Shown here one piece after another: positions 8,187 to 56,861 of a stretch of DNA of 64,000 bases; position 1 is the stretch's first letter; each line of letters starts with the position of its first letter. The stretch is from positions 196,157 through 260,156 of the forward strand of contig JBAYGT010000001.1 in the NCBI GenBank assembly GCA_041666525.1, in the 5' to 3' direction. This DNA comes from Negativicutes bacterium (GTDB taxonomy: Bacteria > Bacillota > Negativicutes > JBAXTZ01). The position numbers and the translations under genes are program-made. The notes below the pieces were generated by a model. That model searched no databases. It worked only from the letters and a program-made list of their open reading frames with translations, and had not been told where the DNA came from.

Positions 8187-9087
8187 TGTTGACGAAAACT
8201 TCTACCGCTTGTTTTGCCGCTCCGGCAAGCTGTAGTTCCTCGATTGCAACGCAGCCGTCGCCGCATATTACAAAAATTCCACCACGATTAACCTCAACAA
8301 CTTCACCCGGAAAACCGTGAAATTTAATATCACTAACTGTAGCACGCCAAATTTTCAGCACTTTTCCGGCAAAACCAGTACAGGCACCTGGCCAAGGATT
8401 CAATCCGCGCACCAAGTTAGCAATCTTCGTTGCCGATTGCGTCCAATCTATCTGCTCAGTTTGTTTATCAATTTTCCTGGCATAGGTAGCAACGCTGGAA
8501 TCTTGCGGTTGCGGAACGATGCTTCCTGCCAACCATTTACCAATTGTATCAACCAGCAGCTCCGCGCCGCTATACATCAACCGGTCGTGCAACAGCCCTG
8601 TCGTGTCGGTTTGTCCGACGATTAGCTTCTTTGATGCAAGCACTGCACCAGTATCAATACCTTCTTCCATTAACTGGATTGATATTCCGGTTTCTGTCCC
8701 ACCATCGATAATCACCCGGTGAATCGGTGCGGCACCGCGATATTTTGGCAACAGCGATGCATGCACGTTTACGCAGCCAAATGACGGGATTTTCAGTAGT
8801 GCTTCAGGCAAAATTTGTCCATAAGCAACAACAACAACAATATCTGGCGCTAATTCACGCAAATGCAGTTGGCTCGCCTCGTCGCGCAATTTTGCGGGCT
8901 GAAAAACAGGAACATCCAGCAAAATAGCTCGCTCTTTAACTGGCGAAAAACTCATTTTGTTACCCCGTCCGCGCGCCCGGTCCGGTTGTGTGTACACGCC
9001 GACTATGTCATAGCCCTGATCAAACAAAGCCTGCAGACAAGGCACTGCAAATTCAGGTGTTCCCATAAAAACTAATCGTTTTTTCAA
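8152..9087 (-). CDS. fmt: methionyl-tRNA formyltransferase
   Basis: MKKRLVFMGTPEFAVP...HASLLPKYRGAAPI; 311 aa. Confidence 0.9.
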   Translation of the reverse strand: MKKRLVFMGTPEFAVPCLQALFDQGYDIVGVYTQPDRARGRGNKMSFSPVKERAILLDVPVFQPAKLRDEASQLHLRELAPDIVVVVAYGQILPEALLKIPSFGCVNVHASLLPKYRGAAPIHRVIIDGGTETGISIQLMEEGIDTGAVLASKKLIVGQTDTTGLLHDRLMYSGAELLVDTIGKWLAGSIVPQPQDSSVATYARKIDKQTEQIDWTQSATKIANLVRGLNPWPGACTGFAGKVLKIWRATVSDIKFHGFPGEVVEVNRGGIFVICGDGCVAIEELQLAGAAKQAVEVFVNSGKIVRGVVFE

Positions 9088-12732: not shown

Positions 12733-12820
12733 GGTGCCGAGGACCGGAATCGAACCGGTACGGAGATTACTCTCCGAGGGATTTTAAGTCCCTTGCGTCT
12801 GCCAGTTCCGCCACCCCGGC
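12733..12820 (-). tRNA. tRNA-Leu (anticodon UAA), CCA encoded
   Basis: Reverse complement gccggggtggcggaactggcagacgcaagggacttaaaatccc...ggttcgattccggtcctcggcacca; long variable arm. Confidence 0.85.
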
Positions 12821-12827
12821 ATTTTTG

Positions 12828-12901
12828 TGGAGGCGGCACCCAGATTTGAACTGGGGGTAAAGGATTTGCAGTCCTCTGCCTTACCACTTGGCTATGCCGC
12901 C
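12828..12901 (-). tRNA. tRNA-Cys (anticodon GCA), CCA encoded
   Basis: Reverse complement ggcggcatagccaagtggtaaggcagaggactgcaaatcc...ggttcaaatctgggtgccgcctcca. Confidence 0.85.
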
Positions 12902-12914
12902 ATACAGAAAATTT

Positions 12915-12989
12915 TGGAGCGGAAGACGAGATTCGAACTCGCGACCCTCGCCTTGGCAAGGCGATGCTCTACCACTGAGCTACTTCCGC
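12915..12989 (-). tRNA. tRNA-Gly (anticodon GCC), CCA encoded
   Basis: Reverse complement gcggaagtagctcagtggtagagcatcgccttgccaaggcgagggtcgcgagttcgaatctcgtcttccgctcca. Confidence 0.9.
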
Positions 12990-12998
12990 ATTTACAAA

Positions 12999-13074
<76 letters not shown>

Positions 13075-13081
13075 AAAAAAA

Positions 13082-13158
13082 TGGCGACCTCGAAGGGATT
13101 TGAACCCTCGATCTCCGCCGTGACAGGGCGGCATGTTAGACCACTACACCACGAGGCC
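13082..13158 (-). tRNA. tRNA-Asp (anticodon GUC), CCA encoded
   Basis: Reverse complement ggcctcgtggtgtagtggtctaacatgccgccctgtcacggcggagatcgagggttcaaatcccttcgaggtcgcca. Confidence 0.85.
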
Positions 13159-49927: not shown

Positions 49928-50803
49928 TTGTCAACCAGCAAATCAGCCAAAGCCACCAAGCCCCTCAATGAAATACATCAGCCAACTGCAAAATTATTCA
50001 AGACTAACAAATCCGGCAGTGAAGTATATTTGATTGAGCACTTTCATTTGCCAATGTTAAACCGCACCCGCAAACTGTGGATATACCTGCCGCCTAGCTA
50101 CAGCAACACCAATAAAGACCGGTTTGCCACAATATATATCAATGATGGTCAAAACCTTTTTGAAGATTGCGGCAATGGTTGCTGGGAAGTAGCGAAAAAG
50201 CTTGATGAGTATTTCGCCATAACTGGTAAAGGTTGCATTGCCGTAGGCATCGAAAACGGCGAAGAGCTTCGCAATGACGAGTACTTGCCCTGGGTGGATG
50301 GTGAATACTACGCTAAAGATTGGCGTAACACAATTTATCCCTATATCAACGAACACTACCGGACGCGCCGAACCAGAAAATATACCGCATTTTTGGGCAG
50401 TTCACTAGGCGCTACCATTTTGCTTGAATTTCTTGCTCATCATCAAGACTTGATCGGTAAATTCGCGTTCTTTTCGCTGGCGGTTGAGGTTGATTACGAC
50501 GAAACTATGGAAATGGCTGAATCTATCGAATTTTACGACTATTGCCGCTTGTATTTTGATATCGGTGAAACTGAAGGCAGCTCACAAGGTGAAGAGGAAA
50601 TTGATGACGACGAGTTTATCTACCGAACTAATGAAATAGCAACCATTCTCAAAGAAAACTCCCATTTGCCGGCGTTATTTGTCGTAGACACTGCACACGC
50701 CGATCATTCCGAATCATCTTGGGAAGCACGATTTTTGCTCGCGCTAAACTGGTTGCAAGACGACAGCGATTTTGGCGATGATTTGGAAGAATTGGTCATT
50801 TAA
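49928..50803 (+). CDS. esterase / alpha-beta hydrolase (putative esterase family)
   Basis: TTG start with RBS AGAGGAGG; FLGSSLGAT nucleophile elbow (GxSxG). Confidence 0.65.
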   Translation: MSTSKSAKATKPLNEIHQPTAKLFKTNKSGSEVYLIEHFHLPMLNRTRKLWIYLPPSYSNTNKDRFATIYINDGQNLFEDCGNGCWEVAKKLDEYFAITGKGCIAVGIENGEELRNDEYLPWVDGEYYAKDWRNTIYPYINEHYRTRRTRKYTAFLGSSLGATILLEFLAHHQDLIGKFAFFSLAVEVDYDETMEMAESIEFYDYCRLYFDIGETEGSSQGEEEIDDDEFIYRTNEIATILKENSHLPALFVVDTAHADHSESSWEARFLLALNWLQDDSDFGDDLEELVI

Positions 50804-50840: not shown

Positions 50841-50872
50841 AACAAAACGCTCTCATATGAGAGCGTTTTGTT
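50841..50872. terminator. bidirectional terminator
   Basis: aaaacgctctc-atat-gagagcgtttt. Confidence 0.8.
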
Positions 50873-50905: not shown

Positions 50906-51724
50906 TCAATACTGATAGGTAAGGCCTAACATCAAACCGGTCATATAAAAATTGTCAGCTTGCGGACCGTTGCTGTTATTAAAAATATCCTTGGTTGCTA
51001 TCTGACCGCCGAAAATAATATCGTCATAAATATTATAGGAGTAGCCAAACTCACCATAAAAGGCGTTGTTAAACGAATAAGTCGCGCGAATTGAATTATA
51101 AAAGCGCGGAAAAACCTGGTAACACATCTCATAGCCAACCACCACGCTGTTGCGGTTGCTGTTAGCTGGAGTTAGCATCTGCATCGGACTACTACCCGTC
51201 CCAACAATGTTTCCGGATTGCGAAGCAGAAATGTTGTCCCATCCGACTACCAGTGCAAACAGGTCACGGGTAGCTGGTTTTTCTTCGTGCGCCGACGGCT
51301 TGCCGCTAAATACACTACTGATATCATCTGCCAAATCATTCCATAACCGTGGTCCAACCCGATACAGCAGTGATACTTCTTGATTGGTAAGGTTGTTGTT
51401 TACCGTGCCTGTATACCAAGATGGTGGTTTAAGTGTGCTATTCACACCCCAGTTGCGATACTGAATCGCAAAATTGTGTCCGATACCAGCCGTTGCCACA
51501 TACTCCATTGTTCCGCCCGAAGTAGTTGCAAAATCGGTTAACTGGTTACCATTTGTGTCTTGAACCGTGAAGCCGCTGCGTTCCGAACCGTAAATATAGT
51601 TTAAATTCACTGCAAAATGTCCCAACCGGTAGTCCGTAAGCGGATCACCGGCAAACACTGTAGTTGTTGAAATTACGATTAAGACGGTAATGAATAACAG
51701 CCAAAATCTTTTTTTCATGTTCAT
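50906..51724 (-). CDS. outer-membrane beta-barrel protein, paralog A
   Basis: Signal peptide; amphipathic alternating pattern; C-terminal ...GLMLGLTYQY ending in aromatic residues. Paralogous to the next gene (DPLTDYRLGHFAVNLNY vs DTLSDFRLGHFSLNLGY). Confidence 0.6.
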   Translation of the reverse strand: MNMKKRFWLLFITVLIVISTTTVFAGDPLTDYRLGHFAVNLNYIYGSERSGFTVQDTNGNQLTDFATTSGGTMEYVATAGIGHNFAIQYRNWGVNSTLKPPSWYTGTVNNNLTNQEVSLLYRVGPRLWNDLADDISSVFSGKPSAHEEKPATRDLFALVVGWDNISASQSGNIVGTGSSPMQMLTPANSNRNSVVVGYEMCYQVFPRFYNSIRATYSFNNAFYGEFGYSYNIYDDIIFGGQIATKDIFNNSNGPQADNFYMTGLMLGLTYQY

Positions 51725-51730
51725 CTCCTC

Positions 51731-52510
51731 CTAATACCAGAAGCATATTCCGTAACGAAAACCGGTACGGAGAAGATAGTTGACATTTGACTCTGGCTCA
51801 CCGGTAAAAGTAACTGCTGTTTTATAGGACAAGTTAACCGTTGTATTATCAACGACAGCATAAGAAAAACCAGCTTCGGCAACAAACAGTCCCGGCCCGG
51901 AAATTACGCCAAAAATGCTTGCCTTACCGAAAGTGTTGATTTTGTTGTTTATCGGCCAGGCGTTTATGACGCCAGTCTCCCAGCCACTGTCGTATTGAAT
52001 AGTTCGTTTCATCCCCGGAGGATATACTGTATTATCATTAAACTGTGAATAGCCGAGGAATACCGAGTAGTTGTTACCATTTTCCGGCTCAGCTGTCCAA
52101 TACGGTGTCTGGCCGTTTACCAGCGCCCAGGCATTTAACAGAGTATTGCCCAAACCATTACCAGTCTTGAACAACAACATAACATCCTGAGTATTCATGC
52201 TACCAGTTACCGTTGTTCCCCCCGGAGCGCTGTAATTGTTAGACAGTCCGGTATAGCCGTAACGAACGGCGAAACCATGGCTCAAACCGAGCGAAAAATC
52301 ACCGTCAAAATTGCCACCGTCTGAGCGGAGATAGCCATTTTGTCCGTTGGACTTTACCGCCAAATCAGTGGTACCCGCCCAATAACCAAGATTTAAACTG
52401 AAATGCCCCAAGCGAAAGTCGCTCAGGGTATCGGCATAAGCCGGATTAACAATTGCGCCAAAAGTCAATATTACTATTGCTAAAATAATAATCTGTCTTC
52501 TCAAAATCAA
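51731..52510 (-). CDS. outer-membrane beta-barrel protein, paralog B
   Basis: Signal peptide ending AYA; C-terminal ...RYGICFWY; paralog of the downstream gene. Confidence 0.6.
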   Translation of the reverse strand: MILRRQIIILAIVILTFGAIVNPAYADTLSDFRLGHFSLNLGYWAGTTDLAVKSNGQNGYLRSDGGNFDGDFSLGLSHGFAVRYGYTGLSNNYSAPGGTTVTGSMNTQDVMLLFKTGNGLGNTLLNAWALVNGQTPYWTAEPENGNNYSVFLGYSQFNDNTVYPPGMKRTIQYDSGWETGVINAWPINNKINTFGKASIFGVISGPGLFVAEAGFSYAVVDNTTVNLSYKTAVTFTGEPESNVNYLLRTGFRYGICFWY

Positions 52511-52578
52511 ATCCTCACTACTTAATTATGATATCCGCCAGATGTATAGTCACAATTTACTTTAATGCAATTAGCATT

Positions 52579-52628
52579 ATACAACAAAAGAAATCCGATG
52601 TATATACAACAAAAGAAATCCCATGTAT
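52579..52628. repeat. tandem 25-bp direct repeat (2 copies, 1 mismatch) with inverted termini, operator-like
   Basis: atacaacaaaagaaatccgatgtat / atacaacaaaagaaatcccatgtat, each flanked by ATACA...TGTAT; lies in the divergent intergenic region. Confidence 0.7.
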
Positions 52629-52671
52629 AATAATTACATCATCCAAAAACTTATAGATAGGATATGTGAAT

Positions 52672-53439
52672 ATGAAACGATTGTCAATTATTCTGATAAC
52701 TGCAATTTTTTTACAGCTTTGCTCAACTATGGCGTTTGCCGCTTTAGCCGCGCAGGGAGTTAATTCCGGGACAGTCCTTTATTTGCTCAATAATCAGCCC
52801 AAACAAACAATCAGCTATTCAGTTACCGGTTGCCTGTACACCAGCACCGGCGTTCCTGAATATTATGATATTGACGGCCAAATTGGAACCGGCAAATGTA
52901 TCGGTCTGCTCAGCAAAAATGCCAACATCGTCGGCGATTACAAAGGCAGTGACGGCACTATCAAAAAATCGCTCTTAACCATCCATTTCTATACCGCTGC
53001 TGACGGCTACCGCGTTAAACTCGAAGGGGTAAACAGCCGCAAAGAAAAGAGTTTCGGCACACTGCTAAATGCCGTTGAACAAGACTACCTCTATCCCTAC
53101 GATAATACCTGGGTCTGGAATACCAATAACGACCGCCGCGACATCAGTTTTGGACCAATGCAGATGACCCGTTCCAAGCGTGTTTCTTCACTCACTCCAC
53201 AAATATCTCTCGATAATGTATTACCGGTTAGCGGTAACAAACTATTGGCCAACCGCACGCCAATCAGCATGATCTATTTTCCGATCAGCGCCGAAATCAT
53301 CGGTTCGATAACCTGTTATTACTATAAACCGGACGGAACGGTGACAATTGTTGACGGACCGCAGTTTTTTGAAAACATCTGCAATACTAACAATGCATTT
53401 ATCACCAACACCGAACAACCGATGACAATAAATAAATAA
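52672..53439 (+). CDS. secreted hypothetical protein
   Basis: Signal peptide MKRLSIILITAIFLQLCSTMAFA; no recognisable domain; the GTG at 52666 is an alternative start. Confidence 0.5.
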   Translation: MKRLSIILITAIFLQLCSTMAFAALAAQGVNSGTVLYLLNNQPKQTISYSVTGCLYTSTGVPEYYDIDGQIGTGKCIGLLSKNANIVGDYKGSDGTIKKSLLTIHFYTAADGYRVKLEGVNSRKEKSFGTLLNAVEQDYLYPYDNTWVWNTNNDRRDISFGPMQMTRSKRVSSLTPQISLDNVLPVSGNKLLANRTPISMIYFPISAEIIGSITCYYYKPDGTVTIVDGPQFFENICNTNNAFITNTEQPMTINK

Positions 53440-53440
53440 A

Positions 53441-53485
53441 CAGCACAGAAAAAGCGCCACAAGGCGCTTTTTCTGTGCTGTTTTA
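53441..53485. terminator. bidirectional terminator
   Basis: cagcacagaaaaagcgcc-acaa-ggcgctttttctgtgctg plus T-run. Confidence 0.8.
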
Positions 53486-54390: not shown

Positions 54391-55803
54391 CTAAAAGTAC
54401 AAATCCCGCACACCACTGTCGATTTTGCGCAATTCTTCCTCGACTTGGGCGCGCACCTCTGGTTTTCCGATTTCAGCCAGATGCCGGCTTATTGCCGCTT
54501 TGCCAATTATTCTTAGCTCATTATCAGCATAGTCGTTCAAATATTCTTCAAGCGTCAAAATCGCGTTCGGTTGACAGACGTTTTGAATTTCACCGGTTTT
54601 GGCAAGCTGCATAAACCGGTCGCCGGTGCGACCTTTGCGGTAACAAGCCGTGCAAAAGCTCGGCAGCCAGCCATCCGCTAACAGTTCTTTTAACACTTCG
54701 TTAGGTGTACGGTGATCTTCGACGGAAAATTGCTTGGTATCGCTGTCATCGGTACTGCTATAACCGCCAACCGCCGCACAGCTGCCGGCAGAAACTTGGG
54801 ACACACCGTACTGCAGCAGGTTATGCCGCATTGCCGAACTTTCGCGGGTGGATAGAATTATTCCGGTATACGGAACTGCCAAACGAATTATCGCCGTCAG
54901 TTTCATGAAATCCTCATCACTCACGGCATAAGGATATTCAGCCGTTTCCATCCCCAGTGCTTTTTTGATGCGCGGCACTGATATCGTGTGCGGGCCTACA
55001 CCAAATCGCCGTTCCATGTCCGCGGCGTGGAGAAACAGCCCCAACACTTCATAACGCCAATCATACAACCCAAACAACGCTCCAAAACCAACGTCATCAA
55101 TACCCGCTTGCATCGCCCGATGGTGCGCCGTGGTATGCCAGTCATAATCCGACTTCGGTCCGCCGCGATGATATTTGGCATAGCTGGCACGATGATACGT
55201 CTCCTGAAACAGGATATAGGTCCCGATTCCCGCCGCTTGTAATTTTTTGTAATCTTCAACGGTAGTCGCAGCAACATTGACATTACAACGGCGGATTGCG
55301 CCCTGATCCATTTTCACCGAATAAATAGTTTTTAGTGCCTCAATTACATAATCCACCGGACATTCGCCGGGATGCTCACCGGCTTCAACCGCCAACCGCT
55401 TATGTCCCATCGACTCAAGTACTTTTACTTCACTGACAATTTCCGCCATCGTCAGTTTGCGCCGGTTAAATTTATTGCGCACACAGTAACCGCAATAAGC
55501 ACAGTCATTAATACAGTGGTCGCTGATGTATAGTGGCGCAAATAACACCACCCGTTTGCCATAGATTTGTTTTTTGATTGCTCCGGCGGCGCTGAACATT
55601 TCTTTGGTTAATTCTTCGTTTTTGTTCTGAATCAGCGCAGCTACTTCCTCGATTGTCAGCCCTTTCGCCTGGCGCGCCTTTTGAATGATTGCACTTACCT
55701 GCTCATCCGATGCGCTTTCACCATTTTTTAACAGCTCAGCAATTTTTTCGTCACTGATAAATTCTACTGCTTCCCACTCAGGATTATTACTCCAATAGCT
55801 CAT
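54391..55803 (-). CDS. hydG: [FeFe]-hydrogenase maturase HydG (radical SAM tyrosine lyase)
   Basis: 470 aa; CINDCAYCGY radical SAM motif; C-terminal CTAC-X22-C (CX2CX22C) auxiliary cluster motif that separates HydG from ThiH. Confidence 0.85.
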   Translation of the reverse strand: MSYWSNNPEWEAVEFISDEKIAELLKNGESASDEQVSAIIQKARQAKGLTIEEVAALIQNKNEELTKEMFSAAGAIKKQIYGKRVVLFAPLYISDHCINDCAYCGYCVRNKFNRRKLTMAEIVSEVKVLESMGHKRLAVEAGEHPGECPVDYVIEALKTIYSVKMDQGAIRRCNVNVAATTVEDYKKLQAAGIGTYILFQETYHRASYAKYHRGGPKSDYDWHTTAHHRAMQAGIDDVGFGALFGLYDWRYEVLGLFLHAADMERRFGVGPHTISVPRIKKALGMETAEYPYAVSDEDFMKLTAIIRLAVPYTGIILSTRESSAMRHNLLQYGVSQVSAGSCAAVGGYSSTDDSDTKQFSVEDHRTPNEVLKELLADGWLPSFCTACYRKGRTGDRFMQLAKTGEIQNVCQPNAILTLEEYLNDYADNELRIIGKAAISRHLAEIGKPEVRAQVEEELRKIDSGVRDLYF

Positions 55804-55841
55804 ACTTCCCCCTTACGTTAATGAATAACTTGATTTAGTTT

Positions 55842-56861
55842 CTATTTCTCAAAAAGCGCCGGAACGCGGCCGGCATCCGCGATTATTTTCATCATCATTT
55901 CATGCGAACTTTCGGCGTCGTCACTGGTACCGGCCTTATTCGGATAAATTTCGTAGTTAGCTCGGTTGCTCTTCGGTGAAATGTTCGGCATAATGACGTT
56001 GGCCCCCCCCATCAACGCACGCACTCGCGCAGTTTTATCCAGCGTTCCCAACGCAGTGGTCGCCGGCAAATGCACAGTTGGCATCAGCAACCGTGAAACA
56101 GCCAACGCTTTGAGCGTCAACTCTACACTGCCGTTACTGTCAGCGCCAAGCGGTGTTGACGGATGAGCCACAAACGGCCCGATTCCCGCCATTTCCACCC
56201 CGGTTGCTTTGAGTAACAAAATATCTCTGGCAACATCGAAAATTGTCGTACCCGGCAACCCGATCATCATTCCAGAACCAATCCAAAATCCCAGCGATTT
56301 TAAATATTGCAAATTTTCCAACCGTTCTTTAAGCGTTGTATCAGGACGCAATTTGGCAAACAACTCCGCATTGGCTGTTTCGTGTTTCATAAGATAGCGG
56401 TCGGCGCCAGCGACTTTAAGCAGCTGGTATTCTTCTTTACGCAATATTCCCGCCGAAATTGTTATCGCAACATCAGCAAATTGTTTTATTGATCGCACGA
56501 TTGCCGCAATCCGTTCACCGTCAAAATAATTGTCTTCCCCAGCTTGCAGCACTATCGTTCCGTAACCTAGTTTGATACCGGTTTTTGCCGTATCAACTAT
56601 TTCCTGTGCACTGTAACGATAGCGGCTGATGTTCTTATTATCAGCACGCAGTCCGCAATACCAGCAATTATTTGCGCAGTAATTGGAGAATTCGATTATT
56701 CCGCGCAATTTCACCCGTTCGCCATGATATTTTTTTCGCACAGCATCCGCCGCCGCAAACAGCGCCCTTTTATCATCGCTTTCCACCATTAACAACCCGG
56801 CAATATCTTCTGCTGAACAAAACTGCTGTTTTACTTTTTCAATTAAATCTTTATTATTCAA
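55842..56861 (-). CDS. hydE: [FeFe]-hydrogenase maturase HydE (radical SAM)
   Basis: 339 aa; CANNCWYCG motif; BioB-like; sits between hydF and hydG. Confidence 0.8.
   Translation of the reverse strand: MNNKDLIEKVKQQFCSAEDIAGLLMVESDDKRALFAAADAVRKKYHGERVKLRGIIEFSNYCANNCWYCGLRADNKNISRYRYSAQEIVDTAKTGIKLGYGTIVLQAGEDNYFDGERIAAIVRSIKQFADVAITISAGILRKEEYQLLKVAGADRYLMKHETANAELFAKLRPDTTLKERLENLQYLKSLGFWIGSGMMIGLPGTTIFDVARDILLLKATGVEMAGIGPFVAHPSTPLGADSNGSVELTLKALAVSRLLMPTVHLPATTALGTLDKTARVRALMGGANVIMPNISPKSNRANYEIYPNKAGTSDDAESSHEMMMKIIADAGRVPALFEK

Follow-up and report, generated by a model that had tools for sequence, protein, structure and literature searches.

The outer membranes of diderm Firmicutes are studied for the light they throw on how the outer membrane originated and how it was lost. 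To our knowledge, the repertoire of outer-membrane proteins (OMPs) described from these bacteria is small, and comprises OmpM, BamA, LptD, TolC, TonB-dependent receptors and a few putative porins. The barrel proteins OpcA, OmpT and Pla are monomeric, and their functional sites are extracellular. Chlamydial MOMP (PDB 9OQ7/9OQD) is an oligomeric 10-stranded barrel with its lumen plugged from the periplasmic side by the first 12 residues of the mature protein; it proved not to be a porin, and channel function is likewise absent from OmpT, Pla and OpcA (PMC13254160). In Porphyromonas gingivalis, the adjacent paralogous genes encoding the major OMPs Pgm6 and Pgm7 (OmpA1/OmpA2) specify a stable heterotrimer for which a homotrimer is no substitute (PMC6112661; PMC5300881). 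Lpg2961 (PDB 9NH1), the MOMP of Legionella pneumophila and "porin I" of the Dot/Icm machine, forms a homotrimer from a single gene product. A heterotrimer of paralogs was also considered for this porin, since three chains of differing lengths occur among the structural matches, and was rejected when the source paper was found to model a trimer of the single protein Lpg2961.

The locus analysed here lies in a window of 64,000 nucleotides (the whole stretch of DNA under study) from a Negativicutes MAG. The organism is diderm, in line with what the first-pass annotation had deduced from the genes themselves. All three open reading frames proposed in that annotation are present, i.e., two minus-strand genes, A and B, and the divergent gene C (Table 1).

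Table 1. Features of the A/B/C locus, in coordinates of the window
Feature	Position	Strand	Description
gene A	50906..51724	(-)	predicted downstream-type 10-stranded outer-membrane beta-barrel, 272 aa as longest ORF
gene B	51731..52510	(-)	predicted upstream-type 10-stranded outer-membrane beta-barrel, 259 aa as longest ORF
gene C	52666..53439	(+)	predicted secreted orphan protein, 257 aa as longest ORF
B-A junction	51725..51730	(-)	6 nt, sequence read
B/C divergent intergenic region	52511..52665	none	carries the putative promoter element
promoter element	52577..52630	none	conserved, ~31-bp, putative
terminator hairpin	50841..50872	none	perfect 14-bp stem; between gene A and a convergent esterase gene
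terminator hairpin	53439..53483	none	20-bp stem; between gene C and a convergent YitT-family gene

RBS spacing and the lengths of the 100% identical, NCBI-named proteins P0001, P0007 and P0011 (270, 257 and 255 aa) suggest that the true starts of A, B and C lie two codons downstream of the longest-ORF starts. The probable starts are thus the second ATG of A, the second TTG of B and, for C, the ATG two codons in, giving products of these same lengths. The RBS of A, GGAGGAG, begins directly after the TAG stop codon of B, so that A and B form an operon, and the translation of the two may be coupled. No terminator is found between them, and one promoter region serves both. The two strong bidirectional terminators said to bracket the trio were confirmed as hairpins, the one behind gene A having A/T runs on both sides, and a search of Rfam found no RNA elements in or near the three genes. 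The ~31-bp element between B and C has the form TATTATACA-N13-TGTATAATA, and its inverted ends can be read as back-to-back -10 boxes (TATAAT) of B-A and of C. The window has a tandem duplication of the 25-bp core, of which relatives have a single copy. Within the window the pattern is matched only at the B/C intergenic region, and none of the other pairs described below has it upstream. A common regulator site upstream of all pairs was consequently rejected.

A full-length alignment of A and B has 23% identity (BLASTP, E 3e-13), which makes the resemblance one of homology and not of chance, and bears out their designation as paralogs. The N-terminal block D-x-L-[ST]-D-[YF]-R-L-G-H-F-x-[VL]-N-L-x-Y is found in both proteins, as DPLTDYRLGHFAVNLNY in A and DTLSDFRLGHFSLNLGY in B, and the mature N-termini read DPLTDYRLGH and DTLSDFRLGH, respectively. 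Judged by eye, as was also done for C, both sequences start with a signal peptide, consisting of a basic n-region and a hydrophobic core followed by VFA-G in A and AYA-D in B. Both also have the aromatic C-terminal end expected of a beta-signal (GLMLGLTYQY in A, GFRYGICFWY in B), and a terminal Y or F is present in 11 of 12 aligned family members, the exception being P0019, which ends in IGWQN. Conservation is highest in the mature N-terminus, PLxDYRLGH, and in a GH motif of turn 1; the N-terminal segment has conservation scores of 0.94/0.98. Between strands 4 and 5 lies a helix-containing insert of ~30 residues (about 29), which is conserved within each type (0.87) and has 19% identity between types.

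The predicted model of A is a closed, even-stranded antiparallel barrel of 10 strands, the first six of which are long, and its best structural matches are all outer-membrane barrels. This agrees with the earlier proposal that A and B are beta-barrels. The model is shallow, being built from an alignment of 10 sequences, and is of low confidence at the N-terminus (residues 17-30, pLDDT <50) and in the insert (residues 142-152); these two parts are therefore placed by strand parity only. The best match is the Legionella protein Lpg2961, with OpcA and Ail also at the top and OmpT/Pla, LpxR, PagL and OMPLA further among the matches. The sequence identity to Lpg2961 is only 11-12%, no Pfam match connects A or B to the Legionella MOMP family, and searches of the PDB with single sequences (phmmer) and with profiles returned nothing for either protein. 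Lpg2961 also differs from the A/B family in lacking the helix-containing insert and the PLxDYRLGH N-terminus, and in being built from one gene product and not from a pair of two types. OpcA (2VDF), OmpT and Pla have the "OmpT-like" 10-strand class in common with A and B, without any sequence-family match. The structural identity to OpcA is 12%, with no Pfam match, and that to the omptins 9-11%, with neither a Pfam nor an NCBIfam match. What A and B have in common with the omptins is thus the 10-strand fold alone, as their invariant Asp, Arg and His residues are by strand parity found at the opposite, periplasmic end, whereas the functional sites of OpcA and the omptins are extracellular.

None of the families in Pfam or NCBIfam is matched by A, B or C even at E<=10, the search of PHROGs gave noise only, and NCBIfam searches with relatives gave only matches far below threshold. 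Profile searches likewise assigned A and B to no well-characterised functional OMP family. The profile of the A/B family does, however, align with that of a set of shorter proteins of 207-244 aa (hhalign 99.9%, E 1.8e-32). PF13505 (OMP_b-brl) is matched by 22 of 27 such short relatives, some of them above the gathering score (e.g., P0050 with 35.9 bits), while A and B stay below the gathering threshold of 28.7 bits, without a match at E<=10. As judged from sequence profiles, the tie of A and B to PF13505 is a transitive one only, through the short relatives. The earlier statement that the two proteins cannot be assigned to a known porin or OmpA/OmpW-type family accordingly holds for direct Pfam and NCBIfam membership, but they can be placed as remote, insert-bearing relatives of PF13505-matching proteins. 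The short relatives examined have no insert and are encoded by single genes, whereas A and B have the insert and belong to ordered heterotypic pairs.

The long subfamily to which A and B belong comprises eight clusters at 50% identity (E<=1e-10) in a set of 1.84 billion representative proteins, four of upstream-type and four of downstream-type proteins, and no orphan of either type was found. The proteins fall into four pair lineages, all with the upstream-type gene first and with spacers of 6-34 nt (12-34 nt for pairs other than B-A). Three pairs are present in the genome of one relative, MAG ELA648; a fourth lineage is found on contig L012 in the same order, and further pairs on other contigs fall into the same two type classes. 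The split between types was tested using BLOSUM62 distances and leave-one-locus-out HMMs. Bootstrap support is 94% for the clade of upstream genes and 77% for that of the downstream genes. B groups in the upstream clade and scores 183.7 against the upstream-type HMM and 85.5 against the downstream-type HMM, and with its own locus withheld, each of the 10 genes gets the higher score from the HMM of its position class. The L009-type pair occurs in differing genomic contexts, so that this pair moves as a unit. In scans of genome and metagenome collections, no more than a single species genome and one further contig came up. To call A and B tandem paralogs, as in the first-pass annotation, is correct in that they are paralogous neighbours, but understates the relationship; by the sequence evidence they are two anciently diverged types that are kept as an ordered pair. 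The pair lineages, about four in number, apparently all come from one narrow group of uncultured bacteria, and the conserved order could therefore partly reflect common descent from a few duplications.

Since every known member of the long subfamily occurs in such a pair with the upstream-type gene first, we infer that A and B act together. The reading we favor, to which we assign a probability of roughly 55%, is that they are co-transcribed 10-stranded barrels that jointly form a single hetero-oligomeric component of the outer membrane, with a structural or surface role, and the two proteins are probably subunits of one such assembly. Co-regulated paralogs that divide a role between them without touching would leave the same genomic signature, and it also speaks against a heteromer that Lpg2961, the best structural match, is homotrimeric. 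Pgm6/Pgm7 may serve as a working model by analogy, as A and B too are adjacent, co-transcribed paralogs with both types always present together. The hetero-association is demonstrated for Pgm6/Pgm7 and only presumed for A and B, and the P. gingivalis proteins are OmpA-like, have a C-terminal peptidoglycan-binding domain and belong to another family and another phylum.

According to the proposed mechanism, B and then A, 6 nt behind it, would be transcribed from one promoter, and both proteins would be exported via Sec and inserted by BAM by means of their C-terminal aromatic beta-signals. Being long, the first six strands would extend outward beyond the membrane and bear the variable loops at the surface. 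The predicted topology puts the PLxDYRLGH N-terminus and the GH motif of turn 1 at the periplasmic mouth, where they might stop or latch the lumen in the way the N-terminal stopper of chlamydial MOMP does, leaving no open pore. The chlamydial plug is a precedent by analogy for a functional, conserved mature N-terminus. Chlamydial MOMP is otherwise larger (42 kDa), cysteine-rich and homotrimeric with a big extracellular cap, and no sequence relationship between it and A or B was detected. A and B would then be neither two independent channels nor an enzyme. In a more specific version of this reading, which we offer tentatively and consider appreciably less probable than the general one, the two proteins form an obligate two-component barrel: a heteromer held together via the type-specific inserts, with the PLxDYRLGH N-termini as lumen stoppers or latches, serving as a major element, structural or surface, of the outer membrane in a deep, uncultured lineage of Negativicutes in which whole pairs have been duplicated.

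A single functional module of all three genes, in which C would be secreted or periplasmic and act on the A/B barrels as a partner, cargo or cap, is rather unlikely. Wherever relatives have C, down to 61% identity, it adjoins B-A divergently, the conserved back-to-back -10 element is common to both transcription units, and the trio is bracketed by terminators. The genomes with C are all close relatives, though, with the whole neighbourhood syntenic, so that the adjacency says little. HMM searches found no C-like gene at L009 or L010, and no comparable divergent gene adjoins the pairs at L021 and L024. The idea of a discrete three-gene module thus fits only the present pair lineage, whose genomes are closely related and syntenic throughout, and none of the other pairs examined. 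The protein itself has a predicted signal peptide ending in AFA-A, a non-aromatic C-terminus and four invariant cysteines (C56, C78, C217 and C239). It has no recognisable domain, as noted before; Pfam and NCBIfam at E<=10 and sequence and profile searches of the PDB were all empty, and PHROGs gave noise only. C is without detectable homology to anything, and its structural model is unusable (pLDDT 33.6). That it could be a hidden member of the barrel family was rejected, as an hhalign probability of 76% covers only the first ~100 columns and apparently is driven by the signal peptide. On sequence grounds C is a lineage-restricted orphan whose membership in the barrel unit is uncertain, the tie being the common back-to-back promoter element only.

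A and B might instead be independent monomeric small channels, narrow and solute-specific or OmpW/OmpG-like, each with its own substrate and co-expressed as the result of tandem duplication. We consider this unlikely. The best structural match, Lpg2961, is called a porin, eight of the 27 short relatives weakly match the Pfam family Porin_4, and the JGI name of one of them is "predicted porin". Known 10-stranded barrels have, on the other hand, narrow or plugged lumens, no transport or catabolic genes are conserved beside any pair, and a strict two-type pairing in fixed order, kept through every duplication, is not what independent channels would lead one to expect. The same pairing rule is left unexplained if the proteins are surface adhesins or variable antigens of the OpcA/Opa/Ail kind, multiplied to vary the surface in relation to hosts, particles or phages. 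In favor of this are OpcA and Ail among the leading structural matches, the occurrence of several copies, with three pairs in a single genome, and the finding that the predicted extracellular loops L1 and L3 vary most among A orthologs. Orthologs are, however, 70-80% identical and syntenic without hypervariability or phase-variation repeats in the genes, conservation peaks at the predicted periplasmic side, and the sequences come from environmental metagenomes with no known host, which together make this explanation improbable. An outer-membrane enzyme, either an omptin-like protease or a lipid A modifier similar to PagL, PagP or LpxR, would make use of the invariant D31, R33 and H83 and the nearly invariant H36, and has OmpT/Pla, LpxR, PagL and OMPLA among the structural matches, but is highly improbable with the invariant residues predicted at the periplasmic end, opposite the extracellular groove in which the omptins have their catalytic Asp-Asp and Asp-His residues.

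The pair adds modestly to a kind of protein already known, and what is new, as seen from sequence comparison, is that the pair is the conserved unit of the long subfamily. The practical reach of the finding is limited, as the family is rare (eight clusters), confined to uncultured bacteria and as yet without a functional handle. A family of fixed heterotypic barrel pairs with no Pfam or NCBIfam model would nevertheless add a component class to the OMP repertoire of diderm Firmicutes, and the pair would offer a clean genetic system for studying how two paralogous barrels become mutually dependent. If the more specific version is true, the obligate pair would represent a heteromeric OMP architecture not described before in these bacteria, alongside OmpM, and the duplications of whole pairs would provide several versions of the heteromer per cell.

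The three open reading frames, two adjacent genes on the minus strand (B upstream, A downstream) and the divergent gene C, were re-found where the first-pass annotation had placed them, and the N-terminal motif it had described was found in both A and B. The database proteins that are 100% identical to A, B and C (P0001, P0007 and P0011, named 'Negativicutes bacterium' MAG by NCBI) are 270, 257 and 255 aa long. When it comes to the starts, the spacing from the ribosome-binding site in both A (GGAGGAG-ATGAAC-ATG) and B (GTGAGGA-TTTGATT-TTG) fits a start two codons downstream. A and B can be aligned from end to end (23% identity, E 3e-13) and are thus true paralogs, both with signal peptides and β-signals. 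They are co-transcribed; the gap between them is 6 nt, the ribosome-binding site of A lies directly after the stop codon of B, and no terminator was found in this junction. The flanking terminators that had been called strong are indeed real and strong hairpins.

Features at and around the barrel genes in the window
Feature	Position	Strand	Remarks
Gene A	50906..51724	-	ORF, 272 aa
Gene B	51731..52510	-	ORF, 259 aa
Gene C	52666..53439	+	ORF, 257 aa
Hairpin	50841..50872		14-bp stem, between convergent genes
Hairpin	53439..53483		20-bp stem, between convergent genes
Duplicated 25-bp core	52578..52628		two tandem copies
PF00756 esterase gene	49928..50803	+	convergent to gene A; orthologs in relatives' loci L001, L005, L013
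Two radical-SAM genes	54391..56861	-	two genes from module; one with BATS domain
Five tRNA genes	12735..13158	-	clustered; sole Rfam matches in window

The barrels could not be assigned to any well-characterised functional family: for A, B and C neither Pfam nor NCBIfam gave a match, even with a cut-off of E<=10, and the PDB contained no sequence relative. Only four to six close relatives of each (61-80% identity) were present in a collection of 5.8 billion proteins. Against 1.84 billion representatives, a profile of the A and B orthologs retrieved 46 proteins at E<=1e-3, eight of them at E<=1e-10. The weaker matches are shorter (207-244 aa); their N-terminus is related (ASPLxDYSxG), and they carry a GLGHxFAxQYR motif and, C-terminally, GLTYKF. 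PF13505 (OMP_b-brl) matches 22 of 27 such short relatives, several above the gathering score, and the alignments of long and short proteins match from end to end in hhalign (99.9%, E 1.8e-32) except for a stretch of ~29 residues, which is an insert between strands 4 and 5 found in the long proteins only. This argues that A and B are remotely related, with an insertion, to a generic OMP_b-brl-like family; neither passes the threshold that Pfam sets for membership of PF13505.

A and B are very probably outer-membrane barrels. The closed barrel expected by the first-pass annotation is predicted by a model of A with ten strands (mean pLDDT 75, pTM 0.67), for which 10 sequences of A and B orthologs had been aligned. 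Strands 1-6 span 15-22 residues and strands 7-10 span 10-13 residues, and a helix (residues 127-140) lies within the 31 residues that connect strand 4 to strand 5. The top structural matches belong to the 10-stranded class of the literature (PMC12501162, PMC13254160). This class includes Lpg2961, the Legionella porin I, a trimer of 10-stranded barrels (PMC12501162), the monomeric 'OmpT-like' proteins OmpT, Pla and OpcA, and the trimeric chlamydial MOMP with its N-terminal lumen stopper (PMC13254160).

Conservation was mapped onto the segments of the A model. The first eleven residues of the mature protein are the most conserved (0.94 among A orthologs, 0.98 among B orthologs) and are 64% identical between A and B. 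L29, D31, R33, G35 and H83 do not vary in any member of the long family. The predicted loops L1 (0.50) and L3 (0.68) are the most variable among the A orthologs. Conservation of the insert is 0.87 within each type, but between the types its identity is only 19%. Strand parity would place the N-terminus, turn 1 (with H83) and the insert in the periplasm, and it is exactly in these regions that the confidence of the model is low.

A scan of GTDB genomes for the pair family returned one species, the Bacillota MAG ELA648, with three loci (L008, L009 and L010), each a tandem pair; L008 is the ortholog of the window locus and includes C. A 1981-bp contig carries a fourth lineage of pairs (P0020, then P0021). 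In a BLOSUM62 neighbour-joining tree all upstream genes group in a single clade (bootstrap 94%), as do all downstream genes (77%), and the long family splits from the short relatives at 100% bootstrap. When each locus was left out in turn, every one of the 10 genes scored markedly higher with the HMM of its own position (upstream or downstream), and pairs on other metagenome contigs show the same assignment. The eight strong clusters of the representative library comprise four upstream and four downstream types, with no orphan of either type among them, and the spacing within every pair is 6-34 nt. Three short relatives, those with readable contigs, are singletons. Together, the clades, the HMM test and the fixed pairing indicate that this deep split is older than the multiplication of the pair, and that both types, in their fixed order, have been preserved by selection each time a pair was duplicated or moved.

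The L009-type pair relocates as a unit, since it is found in unrelated contexts in two genomes, possibly in a variable genomic region. In ELA648 (L009, 6364..12867) it adjoins unannotated ORFs of 175 and 471 aa and a large helicase-like ORF, a putative type I restriction subunit. On GROS21-1 contigs (L024, 3214..7400) it is flanked by a pirin gene and a LarA-like gene.

A and B probably act together, most simply as an outer-membrane hetero-oligomer; for the hetero-oligomer itself a probability of roughly 0.4 is given. The type-specific insert and the conserved periplasmic rim would then serve assembly or plugging, and the long strands and variable loops would face outward. A precedent is found in Porphyromonas gingivalis, where the outer-membrane proteins Pgm6 and Pgm7 are likewise encoded by adjacent paralogous genes, and where the heterotrimer is the functional form (PMC6112661; PMC5300881). 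If A and B were independent narrow channels the pairing rule would be left unexplained, and the same is the case if they were adhesins or variable antigens. An enzymatic role shares this shortcoming and is also at odds with where the invariant residues are predicted to lie.

Protein C carries a signal peptide and four invariant cysteines, and its C-terminus is not aromatic. Searches with C gave five relatives (at least 61% identity) and no family or PDB match, and its model is unusable (pLDDT 33.6). Membership of the barrel family was rejected for C, which has no real similarity to it. Support for the proposed three-gene module is weak: C adjoins B-A divergently in every relative, but these genomes are syntenic throughout, and C is absent at the other pairs. 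The only specific link to the barrels is a conserved ~31-bp element between B-A and C, TATTATACA-N13-TGTATAATA, whose inverted ends are read as putative back-to-back -10 boxes, one for each transcription unit. The 25-bp core of this element is tandemly duplicated in the window (TACAACAAAAGAAATCC[G/C]ATGTATA, two copies), and the orthologous intergenic regions (L001, L005, L008, L013) have a single copy. The duplication may alter how far apart or how strong the two promoters are in the window strain. In the most divergent relative, the contigs from three samples (L013, L014, L015) all end ~60 bp past the stop codon of C (~60 bp after position 8771), which suggests a repeat or strain-variable region just beyond C.

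The neighbours of the trio encode the PF00756 esterase, a Wzy_C O-antigen ligase-like protein, an M20 peptidase, a YitT-family membrane protein and radical-SAM proteins, none of them with an evident link to the barrels. The two radical-SAM proteins appear to be HydG/HydE-like [FeFe]-hydrogenase maturases, because in relatives a PF04055/PF06968 gene at this position adjoins HydF. The esterase lacks a signal peptide, and its called length differs among relatives (257, 274, 291 and 331 aa), suggesting that its starts are variable or mis-called. The adjoining Wzy_C gene is missing in the most divergent relative.

The original observation is thus confirmed and its interpretation supported. For this barrel pair of a rare, uncultured lineage the picture has been sharpened in three ways: by a predicted strand number of ten, by a remote kinship to OMP_b-brl proteins and, as the main new result, by the recognition that the two paralogs form an obligate-looking heterotypic pair.
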